This document shows positions 1,768 to 54,646 of a stretch of DNA of 64,000 bases, piece by piece. Location of the stretch: contig CAYVLY010000001.1 in NCBI GenBank assembly GCA_964452565.1, positions 515,053-579,052 of the forward strand, given 5' to 3'. Every line of letters starts with the position of its first letter. Positions within the stretch are counted from its first letter, which is position 1. This stretch comes from an uncultured Gammaproteobacteria bacterium (lineage in GTDB: Bacteria; Patescibacteriota; Patescibacteriia; UBA9934). The notes below the pieces were generated by a model. The model made no database searches and was not told where the DNA came from. It saw only the letters and a list, made by a program, of their open reading frames with translations. The translations under genes were made by a program, and so were the position numbers.

Positions 1768-1976
1768 CGAGCACGTTCAGGTTCATCCTCGGGCAGGAGA
1801 ACGGAATAGCATTTTGATGTCCAATTTCTCTATAGATACAAATTGGATCTCCAAAATACCCGTTAGTATGTACCGAGGTATACCTGGACGAGCGCAGTAT
1901 GGGCCAGGCAGTTTCTTTTCTCCATTTCTTTGCTGCTTCAAAGAAATGGGTCCAGGGGCTTGGGGCAGGATACCCC
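1768..1976. repeat. Dispersed non-coding repeat, copy A (about 209 bp, about 85% identical to 6635-6843)
   Basis: Alignable by eye to 6635-6843. Contains the hairpin CCATTTCTTTG-ctgctt-CAAAGAAATGG. The small minus-strand ORFs in the two copies are in different frames, so the repeat is non-coding. It is followed by a sigma70-like promoter and a GC-rich island. Confidence 0.7.
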
Positions 1977-2112
1977 GAATAAAACCGCTATTTTTGGCTA
2001 TTTTTCTTACTGCTTGACTTGACAAAGAGCATTTTCTATGCTAGTGTTAGCTGTCCTTTTGCGAACTAAGTCGCGATTTCGGACGGCTGATGCTGACGCT
2101 GGAGAAGCTGAA

Positions 2113-2388
2113 ATGAACCCCACCCCACCCCTAGAGGAGATCGCGGACATGTCCACGGCTACCCCTGATACGAGGAAGTGGGTGATGCTCATCTTCACCT
2201 TCTTCATCGCTGCCATCGCTGGCGTGGTCGGCGGAGCCCTGCTGGTCTGCCTGTTCTGCCTGATGATCAGCGGAAATGTGGACCCCCAGAACACCGCTCA
2301 CACCGACTCCATCTGGACCGGTGCCATCGTATTCGGAATCATGGGTCTGTGGATCCGCGCCGATCTCTTGATGAATCGTGGCCGTTGA
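2113..2388 (+). CDS. GC-rich small membrane protein (hypothetical)
   Basis: ORF 2038-2388 in the track; the likely start is ATG 2113, after the RBS GGAGAA. It has a hydrophobic core (LIFTFFIAAIAGVVGGALLVCLFCL). GC content is much higher than in flanking genes. Confidence 0.4.
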   Translation: MNPTPPLEEIADMSTATPDTRKWVMLIFTFFIAAIAGVVGGALLVCLFCLMISGNVDPQNTAHTDSIWTGAIVFGIMGLWIRADLLMNRGR

Positions 2389-2772
2389 TCAAAAGCCACA
2401 GCATCAAACAACCTTTCGTCTGCCGGTCCCTGACCGGCGGCCATCAATGATCACAACAAGCTTGTGCTCATCGATGACCCCAACCCCCTGGAGCGCTCAA
2501 TGAAAACCCTAAAGAGAGTCGTCTTCTTCCCGGCTGAACTCATCATAGGAGTGTACGTGGCATTCGCGCTCGCGTTCATTCTCCGCAACATGTTCCCGAA
2601 CTTCTTCGGGTGCATGCACAGCGGCGGATCAACCAGCCGTGGTCATCCGCGCCCGTGGTAGTGCGACGCACCTCCCTTCTCCCTCGCGGGGATATCTCAT
2701 CCCCGCGCCCGTCAATATTCATAACTCAGTTGTGACTATCGATGGGCAAACATCTTTCACAGGAGAAATACG

Positions 2773-3159
2773 ATGATCGCTCAACTCGGACAGCTTCTCG
2801 GCTCAGTCCCTGAAGTCCTCATGCAGGGCTTCGCGTGGGTCTTCAGCCTCTGGATGGGATGGGCGATCTGGACCGTGCTCATGTGCGCACCGATCTACTT
2901 GTTGGCCCTTGGGGTCAGCTTGTTCGGCATCAAGAGCAAGTTCATGAGCAAGATCGTCACCACAACGGTCAAGATCAATGCACTTGCAGCCTCGGCCCCA
3001 GTCTCCCTCCCCATCCTCGCCCTCTACCACGGCACCCGTCTGCTGTTCAGCGTGAACTCTGGCAACCAACGCCAGGGGAATCGCAACCAGCGTCGCGGCC
3101 GCCAGCCGCAGCAACGCTATAGCCTGGTCAACATCGACCTCAGGCGAAGGCGGCGGTAG
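2773..3159 (+). CDS. GC-rich membrane protein with Arg/Gln-rich tail (hypothetical)
   Basis: 128-aa ORF after the RBS AGGAGA. Two hydrophobic segments. The antisense ORFs overlapping it are judged spurious. Confidence 0.45.
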   Translation: MIAQLGQLLGSVPEVLMQGFAWVFSLWMGWAIWTVLMCAPIYLLALGVSLFGIKSKFMSKIVTTTVKINALAASAPVSLPILALYHGTRLLFSVNSGNQRQGNRNQRRGRQPQQRYSLVNIDLRRRRR

Positions 3160-3276
3160 CGCTCTTTCACCCTTCTTCCCTGCGATCCACAAGGCTCGCA
3201 GGTCCGCCAAAGTTTAGTACTTGATACTAGCCTTTGGCGGGCAAAACACTAACGGCCATTGGCCAAAGGAGACGCA

Positions 3277-3537
3277 ATGTACAACAGCCTGATCAGAAAC
3301 ATCGAAGAATCGGCAAACAAGTGCGTCGATTTCATCGAGCAGCACATCCTGGCGACCTTCCTGGCCGTCGCCTTCACCTGCGGCTTCATCACACCCCTTG
3401 CCCAGCAGGGCAGCATCACCGAAGCCCTGATCTACGGCTTCGCAACTACGATCGCCCTGCCGATCGCGATGGTGCCGGTCCTGGTGTGGTGCTCGTACAC
3501 CTGGAACGAAAAGCTGGACGGGCCTCGGCCCAACTAG
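3277..3537 (+). CDS. Small membrane protein, leader-associated family member A
   Basis: Inner ATG of ORF 3259-3537. It is preceded by a CCGCCAAAG...CTTTGGCGG hairpin leader like those before the next two genes. Confidence 0.4.
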   Translation: MYNSLIRNIEESANKCVDFIEQHILATFLAVAFTCGFITPLAQQGSITEALIYGFATTIALPIAMVPVLVWCSYTWNEKLDGPRPN

Positions 3538-3618
3538 CAAATCTGCTCCTTCTCACGCCTGGCGCTCGGCCGGGCGTCCGCCAAAGTTTAGCACTCGATG
3601 CTGGCCTTTGGTGGACTT
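3538..3618 (+). repeat. Conserved leader repeat with hairpin (copy 2 of 3)
   Basis: Nearly identical to 3981-4060, with a partial copy at 3207-3262. The stem is CCGCCAAAG / CTTTGGTGG around an approximately 19-nt loop, directly upstream of a paralogous gene. Confidence 0.6.
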
Positions 3619-3641
3619 CAACCTTTTCCCTGGAGAGATCC

Positions 3642-3968
3642 ATGTCCAGCAAGCCCGATCACATCGTAAGCGCAATCCTCCTGATCATCGGCGCAACTAT
3701 CTACACCACAACGCTGTCAACGGCATATGTCGTGCTCATGACCTGGTATATCACGATCACGCCCCTCTTCGTCTTCGCAGCCGGCCTGTTCATGGGCTGC
3801 GTGATCCTGATCATGGCCATCAAAGACCAAGGCAACCTGAGATTCGCGATGGCTCTGCTTACAGCCCTGGGTGTGGCGTTCAACTTTCCGATGACCCTTG
3901 TAGCTCTCGGAACCCAGTTCGGAGAGGACGTGGTCCTCGCTTGTCTGGGGGCTGGCGGTCTGCTGTGA
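3642..3968 (+). CDS. Small membrane protein, paralog B
   Basis: 108 aa. It shares TLSTA..., ALGTQFGEDVVL motifs with 4094-4453. Multi-TM. Confidence 0.45.
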   Translation: MSSKPDHIVSAILLIIGATIYTTTLSTAYVVLMTWYITITPLFVFAAGLFMGCVILIMAIKDQGNLRFAMALLTALGVAFNFPMTLVALGTQFGEDVVLACLGAGGLL

Positions 3969-3980
3969 CCGCTGTGCCGA

Positions 3981-4060
3981 TCCACCTCCTTCTCACGCCT
4001 GGCATTCGGCCGGGCGTCCGCCAAAGTTTAGAACTTGATTCTGGCCTTTGGTGGACGTGA
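3981..4060 (+). repeat. Conserved leader repeat with hairpin (copy 3 of 3)
   Basis: Same sequence family as 3538-3618. Confidence 0.6.
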
Positions 4061-4093
4061 GACAACAATGTGGCCAGAAAGGCCTGAAAGGAC

Positions 4094-4453
4094 ATGCCAA
4101 TGTCCAAAAAATCCCTCTTCCGTCTTCTGGTCTGCGTTCCCTGCCTTATCACAGGCGCAGCGCTGTACGTAGGAACACTTTCCACAGGGGCAATCATGCT
4201 GATGGCCTGCTATGGAGCAGCAATGCCGCTCATCGCCTTTGTGGCAGCACTGCTCGTGGGAACCGTGCTCATCCTCTACGCGCTCCATGACCAGCACGAG
4301 CAGGACATCAAGAAGGTCTTCCTGGTACTGAGCCTGGTGGGAATCGCTCTGATCCTCCCGGTCACACCACTCGCTTTCTATACCCAGATCGGTGAGGACA
4401 CGATCCTCGAACTCTACAAGACCCTGCACTTCAGCTGGCCGCGTGGAGACTGA
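4094..4453 (+). CDS. Small membrane protein, paralog C
   Basis: 119 aa, paralogous to 3642-3968 (GTLSTG..., AFYTQIGEDTIL). It is followed by a hairpin plus T-run terminator at about 4535-4568. Confidence 0.45.
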   Translation: MPMSKKSLFRLLVCVPCLITGAALYVGTLSTGAIMLMACYGAAMPLIAFVAALLVGTVLILYALHDQHEQDIKKVFLVLSLVGIALILPVTPLAFYTQIGEDTILELYKTLHFSWPRGD

Positions 4454-4660
4454 CCTGGAACCCACACTCTACTCGCCCCAACTGGGGCACATCCAGTGCA
4501 CATGATTCAATCATGTTCAATGGATATCAAAACAACCCCAATCTCTCAGGGGGTTGTTTTGTTTTACAGCCGGCCGATAATTACATTATACCGGCTGGGA
4601 TCCCTCGGCATCCGCCTCGGGATGGACATGAGGGAGTAGGTTGTTTTGTTTTAAACTCTT

Positions 4661-4990
4661 TTATTTCTTTTCCAAAATAGCGTAGATCACTGCATTTTGT
4701 TGACCACCACGTGAGGCAACTTTGGAATACTTCACCAAAGGGTGTCTTTGAACAAATGGTTCCGCTGCTCGTAATAAAGCTCCGGTTCCATGTCCACAAA
4801 TAATCCTAACCAACTCTTCTCCTGCCATAAACGCCCGGTCTAACTCAAGATCAATCTCACGCTCAGCATCATGAACATCCATCCCATGCAAATCAACCTC
4901 TGGAATATCTTGCCGCATCTCCGCTATCGAGACCAGCGTTTCGTAATAGGATTCCCGGCCACGCCCAGCCCTTGTATCACGTCTGTTCAT
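4661..4990 (-). CDS. Smr domain protein
   Basis: 109 aa with an Smr-like core (DLHGM...ICGHGTG). Confidence 0.6.
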   Translation of the reverse strand: MNRRDTRAGRGRESYYETLVSIAEMRQDIPEVDLHGMDVHDAEREIDLELDRAFMAGEELVRIICGHGTGALLRAAEPFVQRHPLVKYSKVASRGGQQNAVIYAILEKK

Positions 4991-5412
4991 AATTTCTTAA
5001 TATCAATTTTTCGAGTTTCTGCATCAACATGATCAATCTTAACCACATGAGTTGGTTCGAATGGCGATCTTTCAAAAACATCTGGCCACTCAACACAGAT
5101 CACGGTCTTATCATTCACATAATCCTCAAGTTCTAAAGCTCCCAGCTCTGACGCATCCTTAAATCGATACAAATCAAGGTGTGCGATCTTTTCTACATGA
5201 TCTCCCTGTACTGGATATTCATTCATAATCGTAAAAGTCGGACTTTTGACCCGTGCATTTGACCCAAGTGCCTCTACCATTCCACGTACAAACACAGTCT
5301 TCCCTGCCCCCAAATCTCCAACTATCTCAATAAACTCTCCACCTTGAAGATTTCTCGCAAACTCTGCTGCGATTTCTTTTGTTTGTAATTCTGATGTTGA
5401 TGTGTAGTTCAT
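4987..5412 (-). CDS. tsaE: tRNA threonylcarbamoyladenosine biosynthesis ATPase TsaE (YjeE)
   Basis: 141 aa with P-loop GDLGAGKT. It sits adjacent to tsaD. Confidence 0.8.
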   Translation of the reverse strand: MNYTSTSELQTKEIAAEFARNLQGGEFIEIVGDLGAGKTVFVRGMVEALGSNARVKSPTFTIMNEYPVQGDHVEKIAHLDLYRFKDASELGALELEDYVNDKTVICVEWPDVFERSPFEPTHVVKIDHVDAETRKIDIKKL

Positions 5413-5497
5413 AAATACAGTAGACAGTATACAGTAGACGGTGTGCAGTTCGAGATCCTGAACTGCCTACCGCATTCTGCCTACCGTATACTATTTT

Positions 5498-6565
5498 CTA
5501 AACAATATCCATATTCGAATCCGCGGCTAAGTCCTCAGGTTCGATATAGTTCTTCTCATCCTGAGCGCGGAAGTATCCTGCCGCAGCGATCATTGCTGCA
5601 TTATCAACTGAATAACTAAATGGTGGAACAAAAACTCGTGTAGCTCGACGTTCACCCTCTTTCTGTATCCTCTTTCGAAGCTCAATATTTGCAGCAACTC
5701 CACCGGCCAAGATAAACGACTTTGGTTTGTACTCCTCAATCGCTCGCATGGACTTCTGAGTTAATACATCTACGACCGCCTCCTGGAATGATGCTGCAAT
5801 ATTTCGTCGAAACACCTCATCTTCGATCTTATCCTCATGCTTTCGAAGCGTGTAAAGCACTGAGGTCTTTAATCCTGAAAAACTAAAATCAAAATTATCT
5901 TGATCAACTAGTCCACGTGGGAAATCAAACATATCTGTTTCACCTCCTACAGCAAGACGTGCAATATGTGGTCCGCCCGGATACGGCAACCCCAACATCT
6001 TTGCAACCTTATCAAAAGCTTCACCTGCAGCATCATCCATTGTCTCACCAATACGCTCAAACTCTCCATGACCTTTCATTAAAACCAATTCCGAGTGACC
6101 ACCTGAAACAATTAAACTAAGCGCGGGAAACTTAGGAACCGGTTGCGGCAAGAACGGAAGCAATCGCTTCGCGCGCGGCAACCAACTTGCATAAATGTGA
6201 CCCTCAAGATGACAGATTGGCACAAGAGGCACCCCCCAACTCCAAGCCAAGGTCTTTGCAACCTCAACTCCGATGCGTAGTGCTGGTGCTAAACCAGGCC
6301 CAGATGTGACAGCAATCGCATCGATCCCCTTTCCATCAAAAGGAATCTCACGCTCCAACATCGGGAAAATAGCAGCCAGATGTTCACGCGCTGCCACCTC
6401 GGGTACCACTCCTCCATATTGCTGATGAGTTTGGATCTGCGATAGTACTGTAGAGTTTTCAACCCTAAGCTGACTGCCTCTGCCCCTCACAAGCGCCAGA
6501 GCGGTCTCATCACAACTTGATTCAATTCCAAGAATTCTCATATGTCTGCAGAATACAGTAGGCAA
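5498..6565 (-). CDS. tsaD: tRNA N6-adenosine threonylcarbamoyltransferase TsaD (Kae1/YgjD)
   Basis: Canonical N-terminus MRILGIESSCDETALAL. The likely true start is the complement of 6539-6541. Confidence 0.9.
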   Translation of the reverse strand: MPTVFCRHMRILGIESSCDETALALVRGRGSQLRVENSTVLSQIQTHQQYGGVVPEVAAREHLAAIFPMLEREIPFDGKGIDAIAVTSGPGLAPALRIGVEVAKTLAWSWGVPLVPICHLEGHIYASWLPRAKRLLPFLPQPVPKFPALSLIVSGGHSELVLMKGHGEFERIGETMDDAAGEAFDKVAKMLGLPYPGGPHIARLAVGGETDMFDFPRGLVDQDNFDFSFSGLKTSVLYTLRKHEDKIEDEVFRRNIAASFQEAVVDVLTQKSMRAIEEYKPKSFILAGGVAANIELRKRIQKEGERRATRVFVPPFSYSVDNAAMIAAAGYFRAQDEKNYIEPEDLAADSNMDIV

Positions 6566-6634
6566 TGGTCATTGGCAACATTCTCAAACACACCGAGGTC
6601 CCCAGCCAATCTTCTTCACCTCTAAGCCACACTG

Positions 6635-6843
6635 CGAGCACGTCCAGGTCTATCCTCGGGCAGGAAGACGGAATAGCATTTTGATGTCCAATTTCTCCTT
6701 AGATATAAATTGGATCTCCAAAATGCCCGTCTGTATGCCTGAGGTATACCTGGACAGCGCAGCACTGTGGCTAGCAGTTTCTTTTCCCCATTTCTTTGCT
6801 GCTTCAAAGAAATGGGGCCAGGGGTTGGGGGCAGGATGCCCCC
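6635..6843. repeat. Dispersed non-coding repeat, copy B
   Basis: Second copy of the repeat at 1768-1976, again immediately upstream of a promoter and a GC-rich island. Confidence 0.7.
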
Positions 6844-6855
6844 ACTACTAAGTTA

Positions 6856-6884
6856 TTGACATTTCTACAATAATTCGCTATTGT
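6856..6884 (+). promoter_or_regulatory. Sigma70-like promoter (TTGACA-17-TATTGT)
   Basis: Exact TTGACA, a 17-bp spacer, then TATTGT. Located upstream of GC-rich ORF 6955-8208. Confidence 0.45.
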
Positions 6885-6954
6885 ACCGCCTTCTTGTGTT
6901 GGCGATTGTGTCGACCGATTGAAGATCAAACACTGCAACCAAAGGTAAATCGCA

Positions 6955-8208
6955 GTGAACGAAATGCCCCTTTCCCCCACCACCCTAGCCATCATGGCCA
7001 TGGCTCAGAACCCCGACCTGGCGGTCCTCAGGCTCATCATCCACAGCACCGGCGACTGCCTGCATGTGGACATGCCCGACTTCGGCATCAACAACTGCAC
7101 CGCCATCCCCGACGGAAGCCCCACTAGCTACCGCTGTCAGCTCTGCTGGGACATCAGGACGGGACACCTCGGTACCGACCTGACGGCCGGCACCTACCAG
7201 GTGTCCATGGGCGAGATGAACGGAGTGCAGCTGACCGACGTCGATTTCCGTGACGAACGCGAGCCCCTGGACGACGACGAGCTGACTGCGATCCGCAGCG
7301 CCTTCGCCAAGGCCTTCGGCCCGGTCCGCCGCGAGCTCGTGGAGCAGCTCGGGCTGTGGAACGCGACCCTCGAGGAGCACACGCCCCGCCACCTATGTGA
7401 GCCCATGATGCGCTACCTCGAGTTGCGCATCCAGACCAGCGGCGACAACGTGAGCCACCTGGTCCGCGAGCTCAAGGATGGCACCCTCTGGACCATCGTC
7501 GGCCTCTCCAGCGAGAAGGGCGAACACTGCAAGAGCCAGGCACGACTCCGCGGGAGCGACGAACAGCCCCATCTGCTGGACATTCTCAGGGACCCGAGCT
7601 TGCTCTTCCGCGAGCTCGACCGCTCCATGAGCGACAGATCGCGCCACACCTGGGACATCCCGCGAATCGACTTCGAGTCGCGGATACCAGGCTTCGGTGA
7701 CCTGCTCGAGCGCAACTGCATGCCGCAAATCTTCGAATTCAGCGGCACCTTCGGCAGCGCCTTCGCGAACGCCATGGCCGAGGTCTACCAGCAGTGGGTG
7801 AACCAGCAGATGCCAGGCATGCTGGCCGAGATGCTCCGCGACCGCCGCGAGCAGATCCAGACGGCCGAAAGTGATCTCAAGGCCCACATGACCCCGCCCG
7901 CGCCGGAGCCCGAGGTGGAGGAGCCCGAGATCCAGCCCCCGACCGACGGGCCGCCGTATGACTGCACCGAGCCGCCCGAGAACGACCCCGAGCCCCTGGA
8001 CCCCAGCTTCGACGAGTCGAGCGGCCACAATCCCGAGGACGAAGAGCAGATCGAGCCGCCCACCCCCGTGTCCGAGGATGAACTGCCGGAGGAGCCGGTC
8101 GTGGAGCCCGAGCCCGAGGAGCCGGTAGCCGAGCCGCCCGTGCCCGCCAATGACGAGGCGGACGCCGAGGAGCCCGAGCCCGAGATGGAGGAAGAAGAGG
8201 AGGAGTAG
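6955..8208 (+). CDS. GC-rich hypothetical protein with a long acidic Pro/Glu-rich C-terminal tail
   Basis: 417-aa ORF; the start is GTG 6955 or ATG 6964. The C-terminal 100 aa or so are PEPE/EEEE low complexity. A hairpin terminator follows at about 8250-8313. Confidence 0.4.
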   Translation: MNEMPLSPTTLAIMAMAQNPDLAVLRLIIHSTGDCLHVDMPDFGINNCTAIPDGSPTSYRCQLCWDIRTGHLGTDLTAGTYQVSMGEMNGVQLTDVDFRDEREPLDDDELTAIRSAFAKAFGPVRRELVEQLGLWNATLEEHTPRHLCEPMMRYLELRIQTSGDNVSHLVRELKDGTLWTIVGLSSEKGEHCKSQARLRGSDEQPHLLDILRDPSLLFRELDRSMSDRSRHTWDIPRIDFESRIPGFGDLLERNCMPQIFEFSGTFGSAFANAMAEVYQQWVNQQMPGMLAEMLRDRREQIQTAESDLKAHMTPPAPEPEVEEPEIQPPTDGPPYDCTEPPENDPEPLDPSFDESSGHNPEDEEQIEPPTPVSEDELPEEPVVEPEPEEPVAEPPVPANDEADAEEPEPEMEEEEEE

Positions 8209-8490
8209 CCCTGCAGGGCTGCACCAACCCGCCCAGCTGAGCTGGGCACGTCAGACTGCCGGTGACAGCGACCCACGCCTAGTGCGTGTGCGTCCGCTGT
8301 CACCGGTGTTTTGCATTCTGAAAAAGTGATAAGAGGATGAAAAGGTTATAAAAGTGATGAAAAGTCTATCTTTTCAATAATCACCTTTAATCACTTCTTC
8401 AACCTCTATCATTTTCCAACTAGACAAAACCCAAAAAAAATGGTGAATTATGGGTAGTTACAGAACGTCCCTTTCCACCATGAGGAAACC

Positions 8491-9507
8491 ATGAACTCGA
8501 TCCATGATGCCTTTACTCCCTTGCACAATCCCGATGCGACCCGCGGGCACATCTTTCTCACCGAGGGTAGACCAATATTCCCGGCCACTATCGATCCTCC
8601 AGTGTTCCCATACTGGAGAGGTGTCAAAGACGGTATCTTCGGCCAAGGCACCCGAGCAAAACAATTCAGTGGTGTGATCATCTTCTCCCTTGAGAAATGG
8701 GAAAAGAAGAGCAGCGCTACTGGATTTGAGGTCGAATGTCACTGGCGCCGCCAGGTCTATCCTCGTGATACTGAGATCCTTTACGCACTTGAAACGGACA
8801 CCTTGGACGGCACGATCTGGGAGCAGCTCAAGCGCGCCATTGGCATGCTTAAAAGAGTTCCCCTGGTTCGAGGCTGCGCGATCGTGATCAAGTTCGGTCA
8901 CCGCGGCGACGAACACCCACCCATTATCGAAATCGTGCCTGACTTCCTGTTTGGCTACGATGTAGTCCAGGAAGAAGTAGTCCAGCAGATCCGCAGACAC
9001 CGTGCTCACGAGGCAAAACTCGGGATCCAACTCTGGAGGGGCGTCCAATCCTTATGGGGAGGCGTTGGGCCAGTATGTCCCGCACCTATCACGCAGCTGC
9101 CTGACCTTTGGGAAGACAGTGACGACATCAGGATTGTCAGCGACAGGCTCGAACTCGTGATGGGCCAATTCCTGCGTCGACTCGAGACCCGTAAGAAGAT
9201 AATCGAACTCATGGCAAAAGCACACATCAAGCCCGCACCTGGAGACAGGCACACGGTCGTTGTACTGGGCGACGATGCTGAGCTGAGAATTACCAGGAGG
9301 ATCATACAGCGAGCAGGTGGGGTCACACGACTTGATCCTGAAGCACAGGACGATCCTCTGCCCATTGAGCCGGATAGTGATCGATTCAAGTTCAGGCCTA
9401 CCAGCGGCACTCCAGAGCTACGCCCCCAAAGGAGGCCGCAGATCGGAAGACGTTTAATCCCCTGGGCGCCGCCACCTCCCAGCATAGAGATCGAAGACGA
9501 CGAGTGA
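8491..9507 (+). CDS. GC-rich hypothetical protein
   Basis: 338-aa ORF after the RBS GAGGAAACC. No recognisable motifs. Confidence 0.45.
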   Translation: MNSIHDAFTPLHNPDATRGHIFLTEGRPIFPATIDPPVFPYWRGVKDGIFGQGTRAKQFSGVIIFSLEKWEKKSSATGFEVECHWRRQVYPRDTEILYALETDTLDGTIWEQLKRAIGMLKRVPLVRGCAIVIKFGHRGDEHPPIIEIVPDFLFGYDVVQEEVVQQIRRHRAHEAKLGIQLWRGVQSLWGGVGPVCPAPITQLPDLWEDSDDIRIVSDRLELVMGQFLRRLETRKKIIELMAKAHIKPAPGDRHTVVVLGDDAELRITRRIIQRAGGVTRLDPEAQDDPLPIEPDSDRFKFRPTSGTPELRPQRRPQIGRRLIPWAPPPPSIEIEDDE

Positions 9508-9619
9508 TACCCTCGAGTGCCGCTTGTCCCTACCGCCCCCACCTTCTTGGTGCGGGGTGGTTCTGCTTTTATTGACAAAAACACTTTTTTCACGTATTCT
9601 TCTCTCGCAAACCATAGAA

Positions 9620-9694
9620 GGCCCCATCGTCTAGTGGTTAGGACATCAGGTTTTCATCCTGGAAACGGGGGTTCGATTCCCCCTGGGGTCACCA
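9620..9694 (+). tRNA. tRNA-Glu (anticodon TTC)
   Basis: Cloverleaf: acceptor GGCCCCA/TGGGGTC, anticodon loop TTTTCAT, T-loop TTCGATT, encoded CCA. The 3' end forms attL of the integrated element. Confidence 0.85.
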
Positions 9695-11201
9695 AAGAGG
9701 ACTCATCCATGTGATGTGTCTTTTTTGTTTGTAAGATTGGCGACAAAGCAGGTGTTTCAAATCCTGAATAGGTGTACACGGGTTTTTCTGGGAAAATCAA
9801 ACTCTGCAACTGCTGTTTTTGCGTGAAGTCGGCGTCAACCCATGTCTTTGGGAGTGTTCCAACGAATCCAAAAACGTAATCAACCGCCTCGTCGATATTG
9901 AATGTTTCCAGCCGCACTTTTGCGAGCTTGGTGTGCTGGTCTGCAATGCGATCTTTTACCTCGGCAAACTCCTCCTTGAAATCATCATCCTCGATCAGTT
10001 CTTTTTTCTTCATTCCAATGAGTGCTTTCTTTTCTTCCTCTATACGATCGAGCTCAACGGTCAGACGTTTACGTTCCTGATTGATTGTTTCGTACTGGTC
10101 GTCCCATACGTCCAAAATAACAGCCTTGAACGCCTTGAGAAACTTTTGTTTGGGAGTGATTTGTTCAAGGTAGTTGAAAAACTCTTGCTCGAGAGTATCT
10201 TTTGGAATTGATTTTACTTTTGTTGGGCACTCTTTGAAGTAACAGCGGTAGTACGGATACTTGTCGCCAGACTTGTTCGTTGAGAACGAAGCGGTCATTG
10301 GACGACCACAAAATCCACAAATCACTTGATGGCGCAGCGGAAACGCATCGTTGCCACGCTTTTTGGCGATCGCATCCTCCTTGCTTGAACCTCTGAGAAG
10401 CGTTTGACACATATTGAATGTTTCCATGCTGACAAGCGGTTCATGCAGTCCTTTGTACTCTTTCCCCTTTGAAACCATGCGCCCTGTGTAAAATACGTTT
10501 CTAACGATCTTTGAAATAAGTTGCGGGGAAATCTTGTTTCCTTGCTCAGTACGCAATCCACGATCATTGACGGCAACTCGCACCTCCTCCAGCGTGTAGA
10601 TGCCTTTTGCAAACTCACCAAAGATCCAGCCCATATGCTCGGCTTTTTCACTGTCAGCTGTGACGATCTTTTCTCCTGCCTTGGTTTTGATGTTTCTGTA
10701 ACCGATGGGAGCTTTCCATTGCCAATATCCTTTTTCGAGTTTAGTCAGCATGCAATCACGGGTGCGCTCTCCACGAATCTGGTTATCAAATTGAGCATTG
10801 GCCGCCATTACGTTACCGATGAACTGACCCGCTGGCGTTTCATCAATGGCTTCTGTTACCGATATGAGCCTGATATTGAGTTTGCTCAGGAGTACCAAGA
10901 TCGTACTATAATCGTTCACGTTTCGTGTCAGACGGTCGACTTTGTAGACAATAATGAAGTCGATGGTTTTGTAGTTCTTCTTGCAGTATTCAAGCATAGC
11001 TTGAAGTCCATCTCGATTTGCCGTCTTAGCCGATACGCCATCATCATGAAACACCTTATCGACGTTACCTTGGATTTCTTTCGCCTTCCTGTGGCACGCA
11101 TTATCCTGCTGCTCCAAGCTGATACCCAAAGCAGCCTGTTCCTCTGTCGAAACACGGTAATAGATGAGGCCATTGAGTTGTAGATCTTGAGTTTCGTTCA
11201 T
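9654..11201 (-). CDS. Large serine recombinase (copy 1; C-terminus altered by integration)
   Basis: 515 aa. It has an N-terminal resolvase-type catalytic domain (YYRVSTEEQ), a recombinase domain and a Cys zinc ribbon (CGFCGRPM...YYRCYFKECP). Its 3' end crosses the att core (LVT) and terminates inside the tRNA sequence. Confidence 0.8.
   Translation of the reverse strand: MNETQDLQLNGLIYYRVSTEEQAALGISLEQQDNACHRKAKEIQGNVDKVFHDDGVSAKTANRDGLQAMLEYCKKNYKTIDFIIVYKVDRLTRNVNDYSTILVLLSKLNIRLISVTEAIDETPAGQFIGNVMAANAQFDNQIRGERTRDCMLTKLEKGYWQWKAPIGYRNIKTKAGEKIVTADSEKAEHMGWIFGEFAKGIYTLEEVRVAVNDRGLRTEQGNKISPQLISKIVRNVFYTGRMVSKGKEYKGLHEPLVSMETFNMCQTLLRGSSKEDAIAKKRGNDAFPLRHQVICGFCGRPMTASFSTNKSGDKYPYYRCYFKECPTKVKSIPKDTLEQEFFNYLEQITPKQKFLKAFKAVILDVWDDQYETINQERKRLTVELDRIEEEKKALIGMKKKELIEDDDFKEEFAEVKDRIADQHTKLAKVRLETFNIDEAVDYVFGFVGTLPKTWVDADFTQKQQLQSLIFPEKPVYTYSGFETPALSPILQTKKTHHMDESSLVTPGGIEPPFPG
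9687..9696 (+). other. att core copy 1 (attL: tRNA-Glu 3' end / element left end)
   Basis: GGTCACCAAA. The left flank is tRNA and the right flank is the element. Confidence 0.7.
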
Positions 11202-11515
11202 ATACCAAAAGGAGTGACTCTCCGTTTGAGCTCAACCACCAAACGATGGAAGAAACGGCAGTCACCCCTTTTCATATCACAACGATTGCATTGTGTTGTG
11301 TACGCTTGGAACGTTGAGCTCATACGCATTATGTCATGTTTACAGTTGATTTTCAACGGGTGTTTTTACTCCCATTCGTTCTTTTTTCCATTTCTCAAAG
11401 GCGAGGTTTGCAAATTGATATTGAGCATCTCGAAGCTGACGAATCTCATCATCGCTCATACCTTTTGCGTCTTCGCCAAGCAAACGCTTGTACTTCGAGA
11501 GCGCAATCATAAATC

Positions 11516-12682: not shown

Positions 12683-12687
12683 ATAGC

Positions 12688-13296: not shown

Positions 13297-13303
13297 GAGT
13301 GTT

Positions 13304-15676: not shown

Positions 15677-15686
15677 AAGATGAGGT

Positions 15687-43476: not shown

Positions 43477-43497
43477 ACTAATCTAGAAAAATATAAA

Positions 43498-44154: not shown

Positions 44155-44340
44155 GGATTTATTGGATTAAGTATATCATGCAAAAAGCTATTTGCCACCA
44201 CAGGGCTTGACCCGCCTTCGCTAAGCTACGGCGGGCAGGCAAACTGCCAGATGCCGGGACAGGGGTTGACAAACATTAATCAAAAAGCTAACATATGCGC
44301 GTAATAAACATTTTCAACAACTTAAACATCTTAAACAACT

Positions 44341-44886: not shown

Positions 44887-44926
44887 TCATCTTATCAATA
44901 AAACCGCCGCAAAGGCGGCTTTATGG

Positions 44927-45018
44927 TTGACAAAAACCAAAATCAGGAGTATATTCCATAGTTGCCGGATCGGGGACTCGCCCCTTTCTAGCGCCTTCAC
45001 CTTACGAAAGTAGGTGAT
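44927..45018 (+). repeat. Duplicated promoter/leader (copy 1; TTGACAAAAACCAAAATCAGGAGTATATT ... AGGTGA-ATG)
   Basis: About 90% identical to 45872-45962. It includes a TTGACA-17-TATATT promoter. Confidence 0.6.
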
Positions 45019-45807
45019 ATGTCGCCCCGAAATACTGTCAAAATCCCCTTGAGCTGGCTAGTTGCTGCCATCCTTGTGGTCATCGTAGCCCTGGTAACTC
45101 CTACTGCATCCCTGACCCTCTCCGACCTGGTAGAGGACCTTCAATCAATGCAGCAAGGCACCACTGCACATGAACTCGCTCAGCGAGACGCTCGGTTGAT
45201 TGAATGGGAGAAGCAAAAGCAAGAACGACAAAAAGCGTTTCAGCAACTTCGTAAGGAGCAGGATGCAGCATACCGAAAGATGCGTGCAGACCCCTATCAC
45301 GCCGCAGTGCCTGTTGCTCTGCTGAAAGAGCCCGAGGACCTGATTGGCTCAATGACCCCATGGTTAAATGAGCCGTGTGCACACGAATCCAACTGTGTTG
45401 AAATGCGATTTCACGAGAAACTCCGCATCCACAATCGTGAGGCATACTTCGGAGCGATCCACTTGGAGAAAACCAATCCTGTGGATGGAGCTACCAGCCT
45501 CGACAAGGGCGAGACGCTCACAGTCTATGCCTGCGGAATCGAAATTCCGCTCTATGACACAGTGGCTGAAAAGGCCATCGAGGCTCAAACCAACCACGCG
45601 CGAATGGAGCTCGTACGAAGCCAGCTGGACAAAACCTGGTACGTCGTGAAGGTCGAGGCATACAACGGGAGTATGTGGGGCACCACCCATACATACGACT
45701 GCAACGATACAACCTATGTGTGCTCATACACTTTGGACACTTGGCCTGGGCGCTATTCGCCCCCGGCCACCGAAAACCTGGCAGGACTCATTCTCCGTGG
45801 AGGATAG
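45019..45807 (+). CDS. GC-rich secreted hypothetical protein
   Basis: 262 aa with an N-terminal TM/signal. It is followed by the palindromic terminator ACCGGACC-cacgt-GGTCCGGT plus T-run. Confidence 0.45.
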   Translation: MSPRNTVKIPLSWLVAAILVVIVALVTPTASLTLSDLVEDLQSMQQGTTAHELAQRDARLIEWEKQKQERQKAFQQLRKEQDAAYRKMRADPYHAAVPVALLKEPEDLIGSMTPWLNEPCAHESNCVEMRFHEKLRIHNREAYFGAIHLEKTNPVDGATSLDKGETLTVYACGIEIPLYDTVAEKAIEAQTNHARMELVRSQLDKTWYVVKVEAYNGSMWGTTHTYDCNDTTYVCSYTLDTWPGRYSPPATENLAGLILRGG

Positions 45808-45871
45808 TCAGACGGAAGCCAGGACGCGCGACCGGACCCACGTGGTCCGGTTCTTCTTTTTGGGTAATTCA

Positions 45872-45962
45872 TTGACAAAAACCAAAATCAGGAGTATATT
45901 CCATAGTTGCCGGATTGGGGATCAGCCCTCTCTAGCACCTTCACCTTACGAAAGTAGGTGAG
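45872..45962 (+). repeat. Duplicated promoter/leader (copy 2)
   Basis: Same as 44927-45018. Confidence 0.6.
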
Positions 45963-46724
45963 ATGCCGCTCTTCAAACAGGCTCTTGATCTAATTCATTC
46001 CGCATACTGGTGGGCCAGATTCAGCTATTGGATCTTGTTGGTTCCCGCCGCAATATTCGTAGGCGCAATCGTGCTGGCGCCAGTACTTGGAGCCTTATGT
46101 GCCCACTGGAACTGCCACGACTACACCCCCCTCTCAATGCTCGACTCAATGCTCGACAGCGCCAAGACGCCCAAGTCAACACGGCAGCTGAACAATGGGC
46201 AGACTGTCACGCAATGTCAACGCAACTTCGACGGAACCATTGGGGTCGCAGACATACCCCCCGACTTGGAGGCCAAGATCAAGGAAGTCCAAAATCGCCT
46301 GTTTGATCAAGCAGGCGTCAGGGCAGATGTCTTTCTCCACAACGGCATGGAGGCATTCTACACTGAAGCATTCAATCGCATCGAGATGGAAGACGCGCCT
46401 CCGTATACATGCTACAACGTCCAGCTGCTGGTCATGCGCGACAACATCAACCTCCCTGTGTTCGACGAGCAAAGCTGCGACAAGTGCCTGACGCTTGACA
46501 ACGTCTCCCTGACGGTGATCTTGGTACAAGAAACCGGGGGTGGAAACTGGCAAATCGTCTATGCGCATGCAATCGACAACCAAGACAGAATGTTGGTGTT
46601 TGAGTGGGATATGGAAACATCAACGTACATCTTCGACAACCCCTACGATGACGGCCATTTCGACGATGCCCTCTTGGACATCCCTGTCATCAACCTGGCA
46701 AATGCCGCCCTGTGGGGCAGCTAG
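45963..46724 (+). CDS. GC-rich membrane-anchored hypothetical protein
   Basis: 253 aa with an N-terminal TM. It is followed by a GGACCGGGCCCATGTGGTCCGG terminator, a variant of the one after 45807. Confidence 0.45.
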   Translation: MPLFKQALDLIHSAYWWARFSYWILLVPAAIFVGAIVLAPVLGALCAHWNCHDYTPLSMLDSMLDSAKTPKSTRQLNNGQTVTQCQRNFDGTIGVADIPPDLEAKIKEVQNRLFDQAGVRADVFLHNGMEAFYTEAFNRIEMEDAPPYTCYNVQLLVMRDNINLPVFDEQSCDKCLTLDNVSLTVILVQETGGGNWQIVYAHAIDNQDRMLVFEWDMETSTYIFDNPYDDGHFDDALLDIPVINLANAALWGS

Positions 46725-46875
46725 ACGGACGCCAGGACCTTCGACCGGGCCCATGTGGTCCGGTTCCTTTGTTCTTAAAAACCGCCCCAACCCCTTCTCC
46801 TTCCTGAACGAAGTGAGGGATCTTCTTGAGAAGACCTCTCGCTACGCTCGAGGTGGTGCTGAGTGTAGACGGTTT

Positions 46876-47631
46876 TTATTTATTCTTTTCCGATCGCTTC
46901 TTGGATTGCTCCTCGCGCCACTTGGCGATCTTTGCATGGTCACCTGAAAGCAATATCTTTGGGACTTTCAACTCTTTTGATCCAAGTCCTTCTTTAAACT
47001 TATAGATCTCTGGCTTTGTATACTGCGGATACTCAAGGACTCCAGTTTGATTATAAGATTCCGATTCCAACGAAGACTCTTCCCCAAGCACACCTGGCAC
47101 ATTCCGAGCAATCGCATCAGTCATAATCAAAGCCGGCAATTCACCACCAGTTAAAACATACTCTCCAACAGAGAATACTTCATCAGCAATAGCTTCTTCG
47201 ACTCTGTGATCGATGCCTTCGTAACGCCCACAAATAAAAATCAGTTGATCGAACTTGGCCAAACGCTTTGCGTCACTCTGTGTAAACATCTTCCCATTTG
47301 CCGCAGTGAGAATCACGCGCGTCTTCTTCTTTCCGATCTTATTTCGAACCTTGCGCACTGCAGAATCAATCGGTTGCACAGTCATAAGCATTCCTGGTCC
47401 CCCACCGTATGGCGTATCATCAACCTTCTTGTGCTTATCTTTTGAGAACTTCCGCAGATCGTGTGCTTTGATCTTTATCAACTTCTTCTTTTGCGCACGC
47501 CCCAAGATCGACGCCTTTACATACGGCTGGATTACATCTGGAAAGAGAGTAAGGATATCGAATTTCATAATATCCTCATTGTAGCATGTCGGGAAAACAA
47601 AAACAGACCCGCGGGTCTGTTTTTGATTCAC
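46876..47631 (-). CDS. trmD: tRNA (guanine37-N1)-methyltransferase
   Basis: MKFDILTLFPDV..., a TrmD-like fold. The likely true start is near the complement of 47565. It abuts the KH gene. Confidence 0.85.
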   Translation of the reverse strand: MNQKQTRGSVFVFPTCYNEDIMKFDILTLFPDVIQPYVKASILGRAQKKKLIKIKAHDLRKFSKDKHKKVDDTPYGGGPGMLMTVQPIDSAVRKVRNKIGKKKTRVILTAANGKMFTQSDAKRLAKFDQLIFICGRYEGIDHRVEEAIADEVFSVGEYVLTGGELPALIMTDAIARNVPGVLGEESSLESESYNQTGVLEYPQYTKPEIYKFKEGLGSKELKVPKILLSGDHAKIAKWREEQSKKRSEKNK

Positions 47632-47995: not shown

Positions 47996-48363
47996 ATTAG
48001 CTTTTCGGTCAATTATTAATCGTGCGATAGATAAACTATTGCCTAAAAATAATAGCAAATAACAAGCTCCTGAGTCAATCTTATAGTCACAATCCGGTGT
48101 AGAAATCAAAGGCTTGAATATCGCCTCAAACCTGCCAAGATCGGCCACTTTTTGTCCACTTTCTGTCCTCACAAAAATCCTTGACACATTTTAGGAGGTT
48201 TAGTACAATGCCCGCGCTACCTGAGAGTAGCAAAGAACCTTCACAATTGTGCGATTACAACGTCTTCGAAGCTCTTAGTAGTTTCGAATTCTAGATTTCT
48301 TCGGAAATCTAAATATTCCAAATAAATTCAAATCAGCAGAGATCTTGTCAAATCAAGAAACTT

Positions 48364-49856
<1,493 letters not shown>

Positions 49857-52975: not shown

Positions 52976-53131
52976 TTAGATAATCAAAACCGGGCGTTGC
53001 TATAGAATTTTACCAAATTAACAAGGAACAACCAAGGTAGCCTGTACCAAGATGAACTCAACAAAAAACCGCCAAGCTGAGCTTGATGGCTTTTCGTAGT
53101 CCGCCATAGCTCCGTTAGGAGCGACGGTGGA

Positions 53132-53208
53132 TGGTGGGTGTGGGAGGACTCGAACCTCCGACCTCAGTCTTATCAGGACTGCGCTCTAACCACCTGAGCT
53201 ACACACCC
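53132..53208 (-). tRNA. tRNA-Ile (anticodon GAT)
   Basis: The reverse complement folds as GGGTGTG-TA-GCTCAGGTGGTTAGAGC...CTGATAA...GGTTCGAGTCC...CACACCC-A-CCA. Confidence 0.8.
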
Positions 53209-53317
53209 GCATTAATTATCAAAAGCGCGATAATCATACGTAAATTTTGCTGTTTAGTCAAGGGGAATAAAGCCCTTGCCAGATGGGTATTTTTCTGGTA
53301 TATTTCTGACGCAGAAT

Positions 53318-53394
53318 CGGGGATTAGCTCAGTAGGCTAGAGCGCTTGGTTTGGGACCAAGAGGTCGTGAGTTCGAGTCTCGCATCCCCGACCA
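53318..53394 (+). tRNA. tRNA-Pro (anticodon TGG)
   Basis: Acceptor CGGGGAT/ATCCCCG, anticodon loop TTTGGGA, CCA end. Confidence 0.75.
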
Positions 53395-53421
53395 GCAAAA
53401 AATAATATAGAATAAAGATGA

Positions 53422-53496
53422 CGCCGGAGTAGCTCAGTGGTAGAGCGAGGGCCTGAAGAGCCCTGCGTCGGGGGTTCAATTCCCTCCTCCGGCACC
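53422..53496 (+). tRNA. tRNA-Phe (anticodon GAA)
   Basis: GCCGGAGTAGCTCAGTGGTAGAGC...CTGAAGA...GGTTCAATTCC...CTCCGGCACCA. Confidence 0.85.
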
Positions 53497-53610
53497 AGAA
53501 GAATACGATTTAGTTGAATCGTGTTTTTCTTTTTGCCTTAGCGAATTATCTGAGCCAGATTTTACCTTATTCTAATGTCAGAAATGCCTTCTTATTTTGA
53601 ACCTGGGACC

Positions 53611-53639
53611 TTGACATGGACCAATTTTTTTGATACATT
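53611..53639 (+). promoter_or_regulatory. Sigma70-like promoter (TTGACA-17-TACATT)
   Basis: Upstream of GC-rich ORF 53691-54410. The RBS is GGAGGA. Confidence 0.4.
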
Positions 53640-53690
53640 CTTGCGTTGCGCAGCAATACGCTGTGGTAAACGATCCACCCTGGAGGACTC

Positions 53691-54410
53691 ATGTACCGAA
53701 ACGAAGCGGGCACCCTGCCCTTCCTGACAACGCACCTGGGGAATATCGCGCGGAGCCGTGAACTCGGCTTGCGCTTCCTGACCGCAGGTGACCAGCAGCA
53801 GCACGGCATGAACGGTGTGAGCCAGATCAGCATGCTTGTCGATCGCCTGCGCATCGCCCGCTGGATGATCCTGATCTTCCTCTTCGAGGAGGCACAGCAC
53901 ACGGGACACGAACAGGAGGCGACGGAGCACCCGTGGACGACGATCGGGCCGCTCAATCCGTCAGCCATGCCCATGGCAGAGCTGGCGACCCTGTTCGAGG
54001 GGTCCGATCTCGCCGGGGTGCTGTCGCAGATCTCGGACGACCTGAAGGACGTGACCTGGGACCAAGGCAACGAAGACAGTCGGAGCCTCCTGATCATGCT
54101 CAGCATCCAGCTCCGCCAGTGCGCCGACCACCTCGCGCGCATCGTGCACTTGTGCAACGTCAGCTACGGGATCCCCGCCGACCATTCCGCCATGTTCGAG
54201 TGCATCGACCGTATCGCGCCTAAGGACATGACGGCGCTCATGAGCGGCATGGGAGGCATGATGGGACCCGGCGCGTTCAACATGTCGTGGAAGGACGCCA
54301 GAACGCATGTTCGCACCTTCGCCGAGCGACTGCTCGATATCGCTATCGAGATCATCGCCCCCGAGGCGATCAACCGAGGCTACGAGCAGAGCAACGCCGC
54401 AGCGTCCTAA
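53691..54410 (+). CDS. GC-rich hypothetical protein (239 aa)
   Basis: Followed by the terminator CGCCCACCG...CGGTGGGCGGTTTCG. The antisense ORFs overlapping it are judged spurious. Confidence 0.45.
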   Translation: MYRNEAGTLPFLTTHLGNIARSRELGLRFLTAGDQQQHGMNGVSQISMLVDRLRIARWMILIFLFEEAQHTGHEQEATEHPWTTIGPLNPSAMPMAELATLFEGSDLAGVLSQISDDLKDVTWDQGNEDSRSLLIMLSIQLRQCADHLARIVHLCNVSYGIPADHSAMFECIDRIAPKDMTALMSGMGGMMGPGAFNMSWKDARTHVRTFAERLLDIAIEIIAPEAINRGYEQSNAAAS

Positions 54411-54646
54411 GCTAGAAGCCTGAACAACCTCGCCGCCCACCGCGAGCCGCCCCTGCGGTCTCACCTCGGTGGGCGGTTTCGTATTTAATAAGCAAAATAC
54501 ATTCTCACCTGCTCCATTAGACCCGGCCAAAAAAACCCCACCATCTCCTCAGAACTTACTGCCCACGAAATGACAAAAGGTGCTTTCTTTACCCCACTCT
54601 TTACAAAACACCTAATATTTGTTACTATTTTTTCGCAATCAAAGGC

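Follow-up and report, generated by a model that had tools for sequence, protein, structure and literature searches.

An amelioration model for acquired genes was reportedly put forward by Lawrence and Ochman (1997). Enterobacterial O-antigen and capsule loci are hypervariable and syntenic, and have a persistently atypical GC content between conserved flanks. In Mycobacterium and Deinococcus (the 'group C' of GeneMarkS-2), leaderless initiation and initiation led by a Shine-Dalgarno (SD) sequence are mixed in one genome. Genomic islands in the Patescibacteria are of an already known kind, having been reported generically for this group (PMC12455944). Here we describe seven GC-rich segments, islands 1 to 7, in 64,000 nucleotides of the contig CAYVLY010000001.1 (assembly GCA_964452565.1, forward strand, positions 515,053 to 579,052; hereafter the window), which belongs to a genome of Candidatus Uhrbacteria, in the Candidate Phyla Radiation (CPR). 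The islands are real, sharp-edged and un-ameliorated, they have native promoters, several are syntenic and homologous across genomes, and their genes carry an SD whereas those of the AT-rich backbone do not. We lean modestly towards the interpretation that they constitute the SD-dependent, GC-rich compartment of a two-regime genome. To our knowledge, there is no earlier description of GC-richness that outlasts amelioration, of its coupling to SD-led versus leaderless initiation or of the slot architecture, and a search of the literature for a GC-rich, SD-led gene class in CPR bacteria found nothing.

Like classical genomic islands, these segments have an atypical composition and codon usage, sharp edges and often an ORFan accessory cargo, they are present in some relatives and absent from others, and some of them are adjacent to tRNA genes. 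Unlike classical genomic islands, the units are tiny, with one or few genes in 0.6-2.7 kb, they have host-type promoters and no integrase or att repeats, their GC content is above and not below that of the host, and several of them are syntenic across species and un-ameliorated despite saturated synonymous divergence. The fixed slots, highly divergent alleles, long-retained atypical composition and gene trees discordant with the flanks recall the O-antigen and capsule loci; however, those are large AT-rich operons of known biosynthesis, whereas here there are many small independent slots with a GC-rich cargo without assigned function, which moreover differs from the core genes in its mode of translation initiation. 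As in Mycobacterium and Deinococcus, genes located a few nucleotides behind a -10 box coexist with SD-led genes, but in those bacteria the two modes are not tied to compositional classes, while in the window the SD tracks the GC content of third codon positions (GC3) and the fast-evolving accessory cargo, and operon-internal core genes also lack an SD.

The nearest relatives of the window were identified by a scan for the SMC protein in the GTDB representative genomes, among which the genome of the window itself was not included. SMC identity to the window was 86% for L007, 75% for L012 and 61-64% for several more Uhrbacteria metagenome-assembled genomes (MAGs). The contigs compared with the window (L007, L008, L012, L042-L044, L046-L048 and L065-L067) come from other Uhrbacteria genomes. 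Logan contigs from the runs SRR8146440 and SRR8146441 matched the window at 99.97-100% identity over 6797-9652 (L001), 32516-44956 (L002), 36676-44956 (L003), 1929-6654 (L068) and 53338-64000 (L069). The backbone genes of the window include PilB, Smr, TsaE, TsaD, HSP20, VanW, CNNM, ClpP, a DHH protein, VKOR, SMC, S16 and TrmD.

When GC content was plotted in a 200-nt sliding window, seven segments with 0.53-0.59 stood out from a backbone of 0.38-0.47, in agreement with the initial annotation of this DNA, which had listed seven GC-rich islands in an AT-rich genome: 2051-4550 (0.571), 6901-9650 (0.591), 25351-26600 (0.553), 31801-32550 (0.573), 36701-37950 (0.575), 45001-46900 (0.531) and 53301-54900 (0.554). 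The plus-strand open reading frames (ORFs) of the islands had a GC3 of 0.59-0.89 and a GC content at second positions of about 0.43, against a GC3 of 0.30-0.47 in the housekeeping genes, as expected of genuine coding sequence in a GC-rich regime. At third positions, C reached 0.43 and T 0.12 in the islands, versus 0.16 and 0.32 in the backbone; ATC accounted for 0.82 of the Ile codons (0.36 in the backbone) and CCC for 0.43 of the Pro codons (0.06). Island genes ended in TGA or TAG instead of TAA, and preferred AAG and GAG. The edges of the segments were sharp within ~60 nt and coincided with the predicted transcription start and terminator, and GC3 did not spill into the flanking genes, whose nearest 40 codons had 0.39 compared with 0.42 for the remainder of the gene. 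The first ~220 nt of what had been taken as islands 1 and 2 corresponded to a structured repeat with backbone-like GC and not to GC-rich cargo, and part of the GC signal of island 5 (36786-36922) to a conserved small RNA. Three further units of the same plan but with milder GC were located on the minus strand (27066-27848, 29258-29701 and 56183-56705); these, together with minus-strand units in L065, undermine the plus-strand bias of the seven listed islands.

Exact TTGACA-N17-TAnnnT sequences were found at 12 sites of the window, against 0.69 expected, including 2019, 6856, 25992, 31911, 44927, 45872 and 53611 in the islands. The near-consensus promoter with a 17-bp spacer that had been proposed for each island was thus largely borne out, although the promoter of island 5 (37014) has one mismatch (TTGACT) and the promoter type is not island-specific. 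Five of the 12 sites lie outside the listed islands: three upstream of tRNA-Glu (9572), S16 (44266) and the 16S rRNA gene (48181), and two on the minus strand, ahead of a small RNA (36956) and of a gene with mild GC enrichment (56781). Since it also precedes tRNA-Glu, S16 and 16S, the TTGACA-17 promoter type is native to the host, and could not be upheld as part of a foreign cassette.

A GGAG, GAGG or AGGTGA sequence was present 5-9 nt ahead of the start codon of essentially every island gene and of almost none in the backbone, and the presence of the SD tracked GC3 (Fisher p ~1e-3; Mann-Whitney p 2e-5). The island genes were preceded by leaders of 30-75 nt containing the SD, and a hairpin terminator was found behind every island unit; the strong GGAGG-type ribosome-binding sites and stem-loop terminators of the initial annotation were both recovered, as was its picture of self-contained, foreign-looking units; the islands have the codon usage of a high-GC organism and use an SD, unlike the backbone. 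The 3'-end of the 16S rRNA (49838-49854, plus strand) has an intact anti-SD (GATCACCTCCTTTCT), and therefore SD-dependent initiation is possible in this organism; the anti-SD has been lost in about half of the Parcubacteria (PMC9297842). In contrast, core genes had no SD even in operon-internal positions and even in the 40-nt leader of S16. The arrangement TATAAT-N8-ATG occurred five times against 0.29 expected, always at starts of native genes, as at 26538-26554, 31778-31794 (minus strand), 32547-32563, 40040-40056 (minus strand) and 56862-56878, and looser -10 boxes preceded the start of four more genes. With a -10 box 6-9 nt before the start and no SD, core genes have the organisation of leaderless genes, and this spacing suggests that many of them are probably leaderless. 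A motif shared at the SD (CCCTGGAG; four occurrences against 1.45 expected, all at island starts) was too weak for use, and a C-rich leader was not retained as a general island feature because it was limited to islands 3b, 4 and 5.

Islands 1, 2b (the second gene of island 2) and 4 have homologues, in synteny with the window, in 3-7 other Uhrbacteria genomes (L007, L012/L046, L042, L044, L048, L065 and L067), with a GC3 of 0.47-0.90 versus 0.26-0.45 in the neighbouring genes (~0.6 in one high-GC genome). The homologues of the island 1 genes 2773-3159 and 2113-2388 sit behind PilB in L042 and L046 (GC3 0.69-0.80), and the slot after PilB in L065 contains a GC-rich array of small ORFs with GC3 up to 0.90. 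Members of the 2b family whose context was checked (L042, L043, L044, L046-48, L065, L066 and L067) were all divergent from TsaD, with a GC3 of 0.47-0.72 compared with 0.26-0.45 for their neighbours; with its invariant residues and confident core fold this is a real protein family, and among 1.84 billion representative proteins it was limited to 11 clusters. Island 4 is represented in L007 by the gene 1374-1769, located between an AI-2E-type permease and the homologue of the gene at 32561, with the same promoter and a leader whose hairpin shows a compensatory change with respect to the window, and in L012/L046 by an orthologue in the same slot (3612-4016, GC3 0.80). L007 and L012 have a 530-aa gene, missing from the window, immediately before S16; its GC3 is 0.89 and 0.86, and the two versions are 35% identical. 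In the high-GC relative L065 (backbone GC3 ~0.6) the slot genes reached 0.71-0.93 and had GGAGG, whereas more distant CPR loci had no such GC-rich ORFs.

As an amelioration test, the sharing between genomes of the strong or weak state (G+C versus A+T) was evaluated in the backbone genes, at fourfold sites in codons for conserved residues. The residual strong/weak memory was 0.02-0.10 for the pairs window-L007, window-L012, L007-L012, window-L042 and window-L046. A memory of at most 0.10 implies a per-lineage decay factor of at most ~0.3, so that a gene starting at a GC3 of 1.0 before the splits would now have ~0.5 or less. The orthologous island genes had GC3 of 0.60-0.89, above this expectation, which means either that the GC-rich state has been maintained or that the cargos entered these genomes anew after the splits. 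A new entry into the same slot needs donors with the same flanks, that is, other Uhrbacteria which keep these genes GC-rich, and this leads to maintenance within the lineage either way. Because the homologues are still GC-rich although the fourfold sites of the backbone are saturated, islands 1, 2b and 4 are long-term residents of the lineage and not fresh imports, contrary to the suggestion that the islands were cassettes rather than native genes.

While the slots persisted, their contents differed between genomes. Island proteins were 28-53% identical where neighbouring core proteins were 81-90% identical, and the ranking of island identities conflicted with that of the backbone: the identity of 1c was 0.70 between L042 and L046 and 0.49 between the window and L042, the closest pair by PilB, TsaD and TsaE. 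The promoter of island 5 and its upstream sequence were 85% conserved in L007 (promoter 6635-6665), but from the -10 box on, L007 has a different, structured non-coding cargo of ~230 nt (6668-6895) with its own terminator and a folding z-score of -3.0, indicating that the promoter is ancestral and the cargo was swapped. The island 5 cargo was thus absent from L007, island 6 was missing from the S16-TrmD interval of both L007 and L012, and L007 has GC-rich SD-led genes without counterpart in the window (9206-9820 and 17364-18938). Between L046 and L048, two near-identical strains (97.5-99.2% identity) from the same aquifer-type samples, single nucleotide polymorphisms (SNPs) were clustered in patches in backbone and islands alike, the pattern expected of homologous recombination. 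SNP density was 1.5% in the islands and 1.2% in the backbone, and with such similar values hypermutation of the islands was discarded.

Searches for a source outside the clade were negative. For the cargos 37081-37791, 6955-8208 and 53691-54410 the protein homology search gave a self-match at most, a negative that is weak for islands 5 and 7 owing to wrong-strand gene calls; IMG/VR scans with the two genes of island 2 (2a and 2b) gave no match, and tblastn of the island proteins against plasmids gave nothing meaningful. The high-GC donor lineage that had been anticipated for the island proteins was not found in any of these searches, and the members of the 2b family whose context was checked were all on Uhrbacteria contigs syntenic with the window, beside TsaD. 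A tblastx comparison of the islands with the loci was swamped by compositional matches to a contig of 70% GC and was discarded.

Under the interpretation that we favour, each unit would be an autonomous transcription unit inserted in a slot between conserved core genes and driven by a host-type, near-consensus sigma-70 promoter. Its leader of 30-75 nt, in many cases structured or C-rich, and with the capacity to mask the ribosome-binding site in island 6, would carry a GGAG(G) or AGGTGA pairing with the CCUCC tail that the 16S rRNA has kept intact. It would be followed by one or few fast-evolving lineage-specific genes, coding for a KhpA-like protein, for soluble proteins without recognised fold or for small proteins that are secreted or in the membrane, and then by an intrinsic terminator. 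The surrounding core genes, AT-rich, without SD and often starting 8 nt behind a TATAAT, would probably be leaderless. The codon usage of the cargo, that of a high-GC, C3-rich organism (C3 being C at third positions), suggests a foreign ancestry, but the slots and several cargos are old, and the GC-rich state would be maintained across the whole transcription unit, while cargos would be gained, lost and swapped behind conserved promoters.

Several points weigh against this interpretation. The comparison is based on ~64 kb of this genome and pieces of 10-22 kb of its relatives, and the leaderless starts rest on promoter spacing. A few AT-rich genes of relatives do have an SD (L042 at 2567), and there are AT-rich lineage-specific genes without SD (42484-43476 and 43498-44154), which means that membership in the class is not simply 'accessory'. 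The discordant identities could stem from unequal evolutionary rates instead of allele replacement. The protein, viral and plasmid searches found no donor or GC-rich reservoir. The force that maintains GC may be whole-unit turnover in an Uhrbacterial flexible gene pool, transcript-level selection or both; these were tentatively ranked above a diffuse GC-biased gene conversion.

Four other explanations were weighed. The initial annotation had left room for a chimeric assembly or an engineered origin; together with contamination by high-GC DNA, this has practically no chance of being correct and is already refuted for islands 1, 2, 4, 5 and 7. The compositional contrast and the textbook-like expression signals are its sole evidence, whereas independent Logan contigs of the two runs extend with 100% identity from the backbone into islands 1, 5 and 7 (L068, from the second run, for island 1; L002 and L003 for island 5; L069 for island 7), no plasmid or vector matched the islands, and homologous GC-rich genes occupy the same positions in MAGs from unrelated studies (NCBI, ENA, JGI), as found for islands 1, 2b and 4, which is what had been named beforehand as an argument against chimerism. 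It is also unlikely, though far less so, that the islands derive from recent and independent horizontal gene transfer (HGT) from one or more high-GC, SD-using donors, their GC being un-ameliorated donor composition. The codon usage is typical of high-GC bacteria, the three cargos with the highest GC3 (6955-8208, 37081-37791 and 53691-54410) are orphans, that of island 5 is missing from the closest relative, L007, and the GC3 spread of 0.49-0.89 looks as if the units differed in age. In addition, islands 2 and 7 adjoin tRNA genes, the GC-rich class of the relatives includes transferable genes such as an oligopeptide (OPT) transporter and an acyl carrier protein (ACP), and genomic islands and HGT are reported to be common in Patescibacteria (PMC12455944). 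Recent transfer is opposed, however, by the synteny of islands 1, 2b, 4 and the 530-aa gene of L007 and L012 past synonymous saturation with GC3 still at 0.6-0.89, by the lack of a donor homologue outside Uhrbacteria for the exhaustively searched 2b family, by native promoters, ancestral in island 5, and by the lack of integrase and att repeats: no recombinase was found inside any island, and islands 2 and 7 merely adjoin their tRNAs.

The remaining two explanations place the origin of the composition within the lineage. Selection on the transcripts of a regulon, coupled to SD translation, could have made and kept the units GC- and C3-rich with no need of foreign ancestry, the possible targets being mRNA stability, structure, or the escape from or use of Rho or RNases. 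We consider this unlikely. It fits the coincidence of the compositional unit with the transcription unit, leader and terminator included, the bias of C over G that follows the sense strand in both orientations in L065, the conserved and structured leaders, the GC-richness that outlasts synonymous saturation, and the persistence of the dichotomy in a high-GC Uhrbacterium, in which the islands are higher still. But S16, ClpP and HSP20, classically highly expressed, are AT-rich, the minus-strand SD units are only mildly GC-enriched, and we know of no selective force that would raise GC3 by 0.3-0.5. GC-biased gene conversion at recombination hot spots, where diversifying loci often exchanged by natural transformation would become GC-rich as a by-product, seems improbable indeed: GC3 does not spill into the flanks, the edges are sharp within 60 nt and follow the transcription unit, the shift is asymmetric, mostly C3 against T3, SNP density in the islands is close to that of the backbone (1.5% vs 1.2%), and the effect is far above that reported for bacteria, reportedly by Lassalle et al. 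(2015). It can count on the patchy SNPs of L046 and L048, which indicate recombination, and on fast-evolving island proteins whose identities are discordant with the backbone. Of two further candidate causes, translational selection fits poorly with the AT-rich S16, ClpP and HSP20 and with the preference of the islands for AAG and GAG, and weak constraint was rejected in view of the AT-rich orphan genes without SD (42484-43476 and 43498-44154).

All seven islands are on the plus strand. Island 1 (2019-4561) begins with a promoter at 2019-2047, followed by an array of six small SD-led genes (2113-2388, 2500-2661, 2773-3159, 3277-3537, 3642-3968 and 4094-4453; GC3 0.70-0.84) and terminators at 4475-4488 and 4528-4561. 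Most of the six proteins have 1-4 transmembrane (TM) segments, and the genes at 3642 and 4094 are local paralogues. Double hairpins of 71 nt (GTCCGCCAAAG...CTTTGGTGGAC) separate genes at 3172-3242, 3546-3616 and 3986-4056; two copies are 93% identical and the third ~65%. A second intercistronic motif, GGCC.TCAAT...TTGTG..ATCGATG, occurs at ~2425-2470 and ~2700-2745 and also between small ORFs of L042. The intercistronic elements of island 1 could serve as processing sites, internal promoters or recombination sites. As a co-oriented array of small ORFans split by conserved structured repeats of ~71 nt, island 1 resembles integron arrays and clusters of attC sites lacking integrase (CALINs); unlike integron cassettes, however, the units have their own promoters and SDs, and the other islands are single and dispersed. 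An integron reading was rejected, since on inspection the repeats at 3172, 3546 and 3986 had no RYYYAAC (R'') or GTTRRRY (R') motifs; no IntI was found in the 64-kb window, whose sole recombinases, a large serine recombinase and a phage-type integrase, belong to an element at tRNA-Glu.

Island 2 (6856-9561; promoter 6856-6884) contains the orphan gene 2a (6955-8208, 417 aa, GC3 0.89), whose product has an acidic Pro/Glu tail, and the gene 2b (8491-9507, 338 aa, GC3 0.60), with terminators at 8258-8308 and 9532-9561. Island 3 has two units: 3a (25275-25848), with an SD GGAGG at 25275-25279, a TTG-start gene (25287-25802, 171 aa, GC3 0.51) whose product had no Pfam or PHROG match, and a terminator at 25822-25848; and 3b (25992-26522), with a promoter at 25992-26020, a gene for a protein with an N-terminal TM segment or signal (26061-26477, 138 aa, GC3 0.88), and a terminator at 26494-26522 nearly identical to that of 3a (25816 and 26489, 91% over 43 nt).

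Island 4 (31911-32463) consists of a promoter (31911-31939), a structured, C-rich leader of 76 nt, a gene (32022-32417, GC3 0.65) and a hairpin at 32440-32463. Its product of 131 aa is a putative, divergent KhpA-like KH protein: a profile of three sequences of the family had KhpA 7xqc as best PDB match (E 3.9e-4), while the protein of the window had no Pfam match, the L012 orthologue gave a sub-threshold match to KH_KhpA-B (19 bits versus a cut-off of 32.1), and the GxxG motif is degenerate (GRVKGRGQD). The terminal inverted repeats that had been assigned to 31789-32553 exist as an inverted repeat (31777-31812 and 32529-32564, 86% complementary), but they are look-alike TATAAT-N8-ATG promoters with the starts of the divergent native flanking genes, 30734-31780, transcribed leftwards, and 32561-33253, transcribed rightwards. 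A transposon or miniature inverted-repeat transposable element was rejected as well, because the inverted repeats 31777/32529 and 25113/26531 hold the -10 boxes and start codons of divergent flanking genes, and there is no transposase.

Island 5 (37014-37851) has a promoter (37014-37042), a C-rich leader, an orphan gene for a protein of 236 aa with a signal peptide (37081-37791, GC3 0.86) and a terminator (37807-37851). Island 6 (44927-46765) is formed by two paralogous units: the first (6a) with promoter 44927-44955, gene 45019-45807 (262 aa, GC3 0.59) and terminator 45830-45852, and the second (6b) with promoter 45872-45900, gene 45963-46724 (253 aa, GC3 0.69) and terminator 46743-46765. The leaders at 44927 and 45872 resemble each other (93% and 85% identity), and in both of them a hairpin can pair CACCTTAC with the AGGTGA SD and sequester it, which suggests a possible translational control. 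Island 7 (53611-54477), between tRNA-Phe and tRNA-Gly, has a promoter at 53611-53639, an orphan gene (53691-54410, 239 aa, GC3 0.85) and a terminator at 54432-54477. Among the minus-strand units, the SD-led gene 27066-27848 has GGAGG and a mild GC enrichment (GC3 0.51), and its L067 homologue (4007-4780) also has GGAGG; the SD-led unit 29217-29715 contains the gene 29258-29701 (147 aa, GC 0.55, GC3 0.59) and a terminator at 29217-29239; and the unit 56150-56781 has a TTGACA-17 promoter (56781-56753), the SD GAGAGGAGGG, the gene 56183-56705 (GC3 ~0.49) and a hairpin terminator.

The view that the products were mostly small secreted or multi-TM proteins fitted the TM segments of island 1 and the N-terminal signal or TM segments of islands 3b, 5, 6a and 6b, but the 417-, 338- and 239-aa products are soluble. 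Apart from the KhpA match of the island 4 profile, none of the cargos could be assigned by Pfam, PHROG or solved structures; the sole match, to a coiled-coil 'spanin', was given no weight. With the exception of the local paralogues 3642/4094 and 45019/45963 the cargos were mutually unrelated, so they do not form the dispersed family that the initial annotation had proposed. Their features are consistent with a putative role at the cell surface, the envelope or the host interface. In islands 5 and 7 the public gene calls were antisense ORFs, L002 4587-5216 (window 37102-37731, minus strand) and L069 624-1127 (window 53961-54464, minus strand), although the GC3 frame, the SD and the promoter all indicate the plus strand; the true proteins are in consequence absent from protein databases, as probably are those of the relatives.

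Shared flanks had also been described for some islands. The terminators at 25816 and 26489 and the leaders at 44927 and 45872 are indeed duplicated, and a 209-nt repeat exists, but it is not part of the GC-rich cargo. It corresponds to a structured repeat of ~210 nt with backbone-like GC, with one copy upstream of island 1 (1768-1981) and another, ~90% identical and differing in a variable central patch, upstream of island 2 (6635-6847). In a third, diverged copy in L008 (4680-4880) the fold is kept by 14-16 compensatory pairs. A segment of 43 nt is 98% conserved (GCAGTTTCTTTTC.CCATTTCTTTGCTGCTTCAAAGAAATGGG), and all three copies precede a TTGAC-type promoter and an SD-led gene; however, as there are no copies other than the two of the window and the one of L008, the repeat was rejected as a general companion of the islands. 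The small RNA beside island 5 (36786-36922, minus strand) is a long hairpin of ~125 nt with a consensus promoter (36956-36928) and a U-tail, conserved at 80-89% in L004, L006, L007, L009, L011, L012, L013 and L067 and more weakly in L016. With 17 covarying pairs, an invariant core (CUGCAGCCACGACAAGCAUGGGGGUAUAU...AUAUAUCUUCUUGGCUGCAG) and no Rfam family at E < 0.1, it is a candidate new CPR RNA. At permissive thresholds, Rfam gave no family for the 209-nt repeat, the small RNA at 36.8 kb, the GC-rich stretch at 29.2-29.9 kb or the L007 slot.

Next to island 2, an integrative element of 7,378 bp, an entity separate from the islands, is present in two tandem copies without mismatches (9687-24452), inserted at the 3'-end of tRNA-Glu (9620-9694) with the core GGTCACCAAA at all three junctions. 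Genes for a large serine recombinase (9654-11201) and a phage-type tyrosine integrase (11516-12682) are found in each copy, besides others for hypothetical proteins. The duplication reflects either tandem integration or an assembly duplication, and the Logan contig L001 ends at the edge of the element. S16 (44341-44886), upstream of island 6, has 181 aa, of which only residues 8-66 match the S16 domain, followed by an unassigned C-terminal extension of ~110 aa; only about 100 residues could be aligned in relatives. The 16S rRNA gene (48363-49854) stands alone: the next feature is a minus-strand protein gene, with no 23S or 5S after it, so the rRNA genes are unlinked, and tRNA-Ile(GAT) is encoded on the other strand at a distance of 3.3 kb. 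A histidine kinase of 1,670 aa (56876-61888) combines some ten PAS domains with GAF, HisKA and HATPase domains, and is unusually large sensory equipment for a CPR bacterium with a reduced genome; its PAS units account for the internal repeats at 56930 and 57302.

We tentatively propose that the clade may keep an insulated second compartment of dozens of small, SD-dependent, GC- and C3-rich units behind native promoters, with a fast-evolving surface or host-interaction cargo whose composition might be actively maintained by transcript-level selection or by turnover of units from a dedicated GC-rich reservoir. If so, the composition could be a standing exception to amelioration, linked to the switch between leaderless and SD-led initiation, and not a passive relic of transfer. 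In practice, standard gene prediction, when trained on the AT-rich backbone, picks the antisense strand in these islands, and the real proteins are consequently missing from public protein databases. If the two-regime architecture were genome-wide, it would provide a natural case of atypical composition persisting far beyond amelioration time and would call into question the dating of gene transfer by GC deviation. It would also tie composition to initiation mode, with a leaderless or non-SD core and SD-led flexible genes, in a CPR lineage whose relatives are losing the anti-SD (PMC9297842), and would give a small and easily recognised set of candidate host-interaction genes in uncultured organisms.

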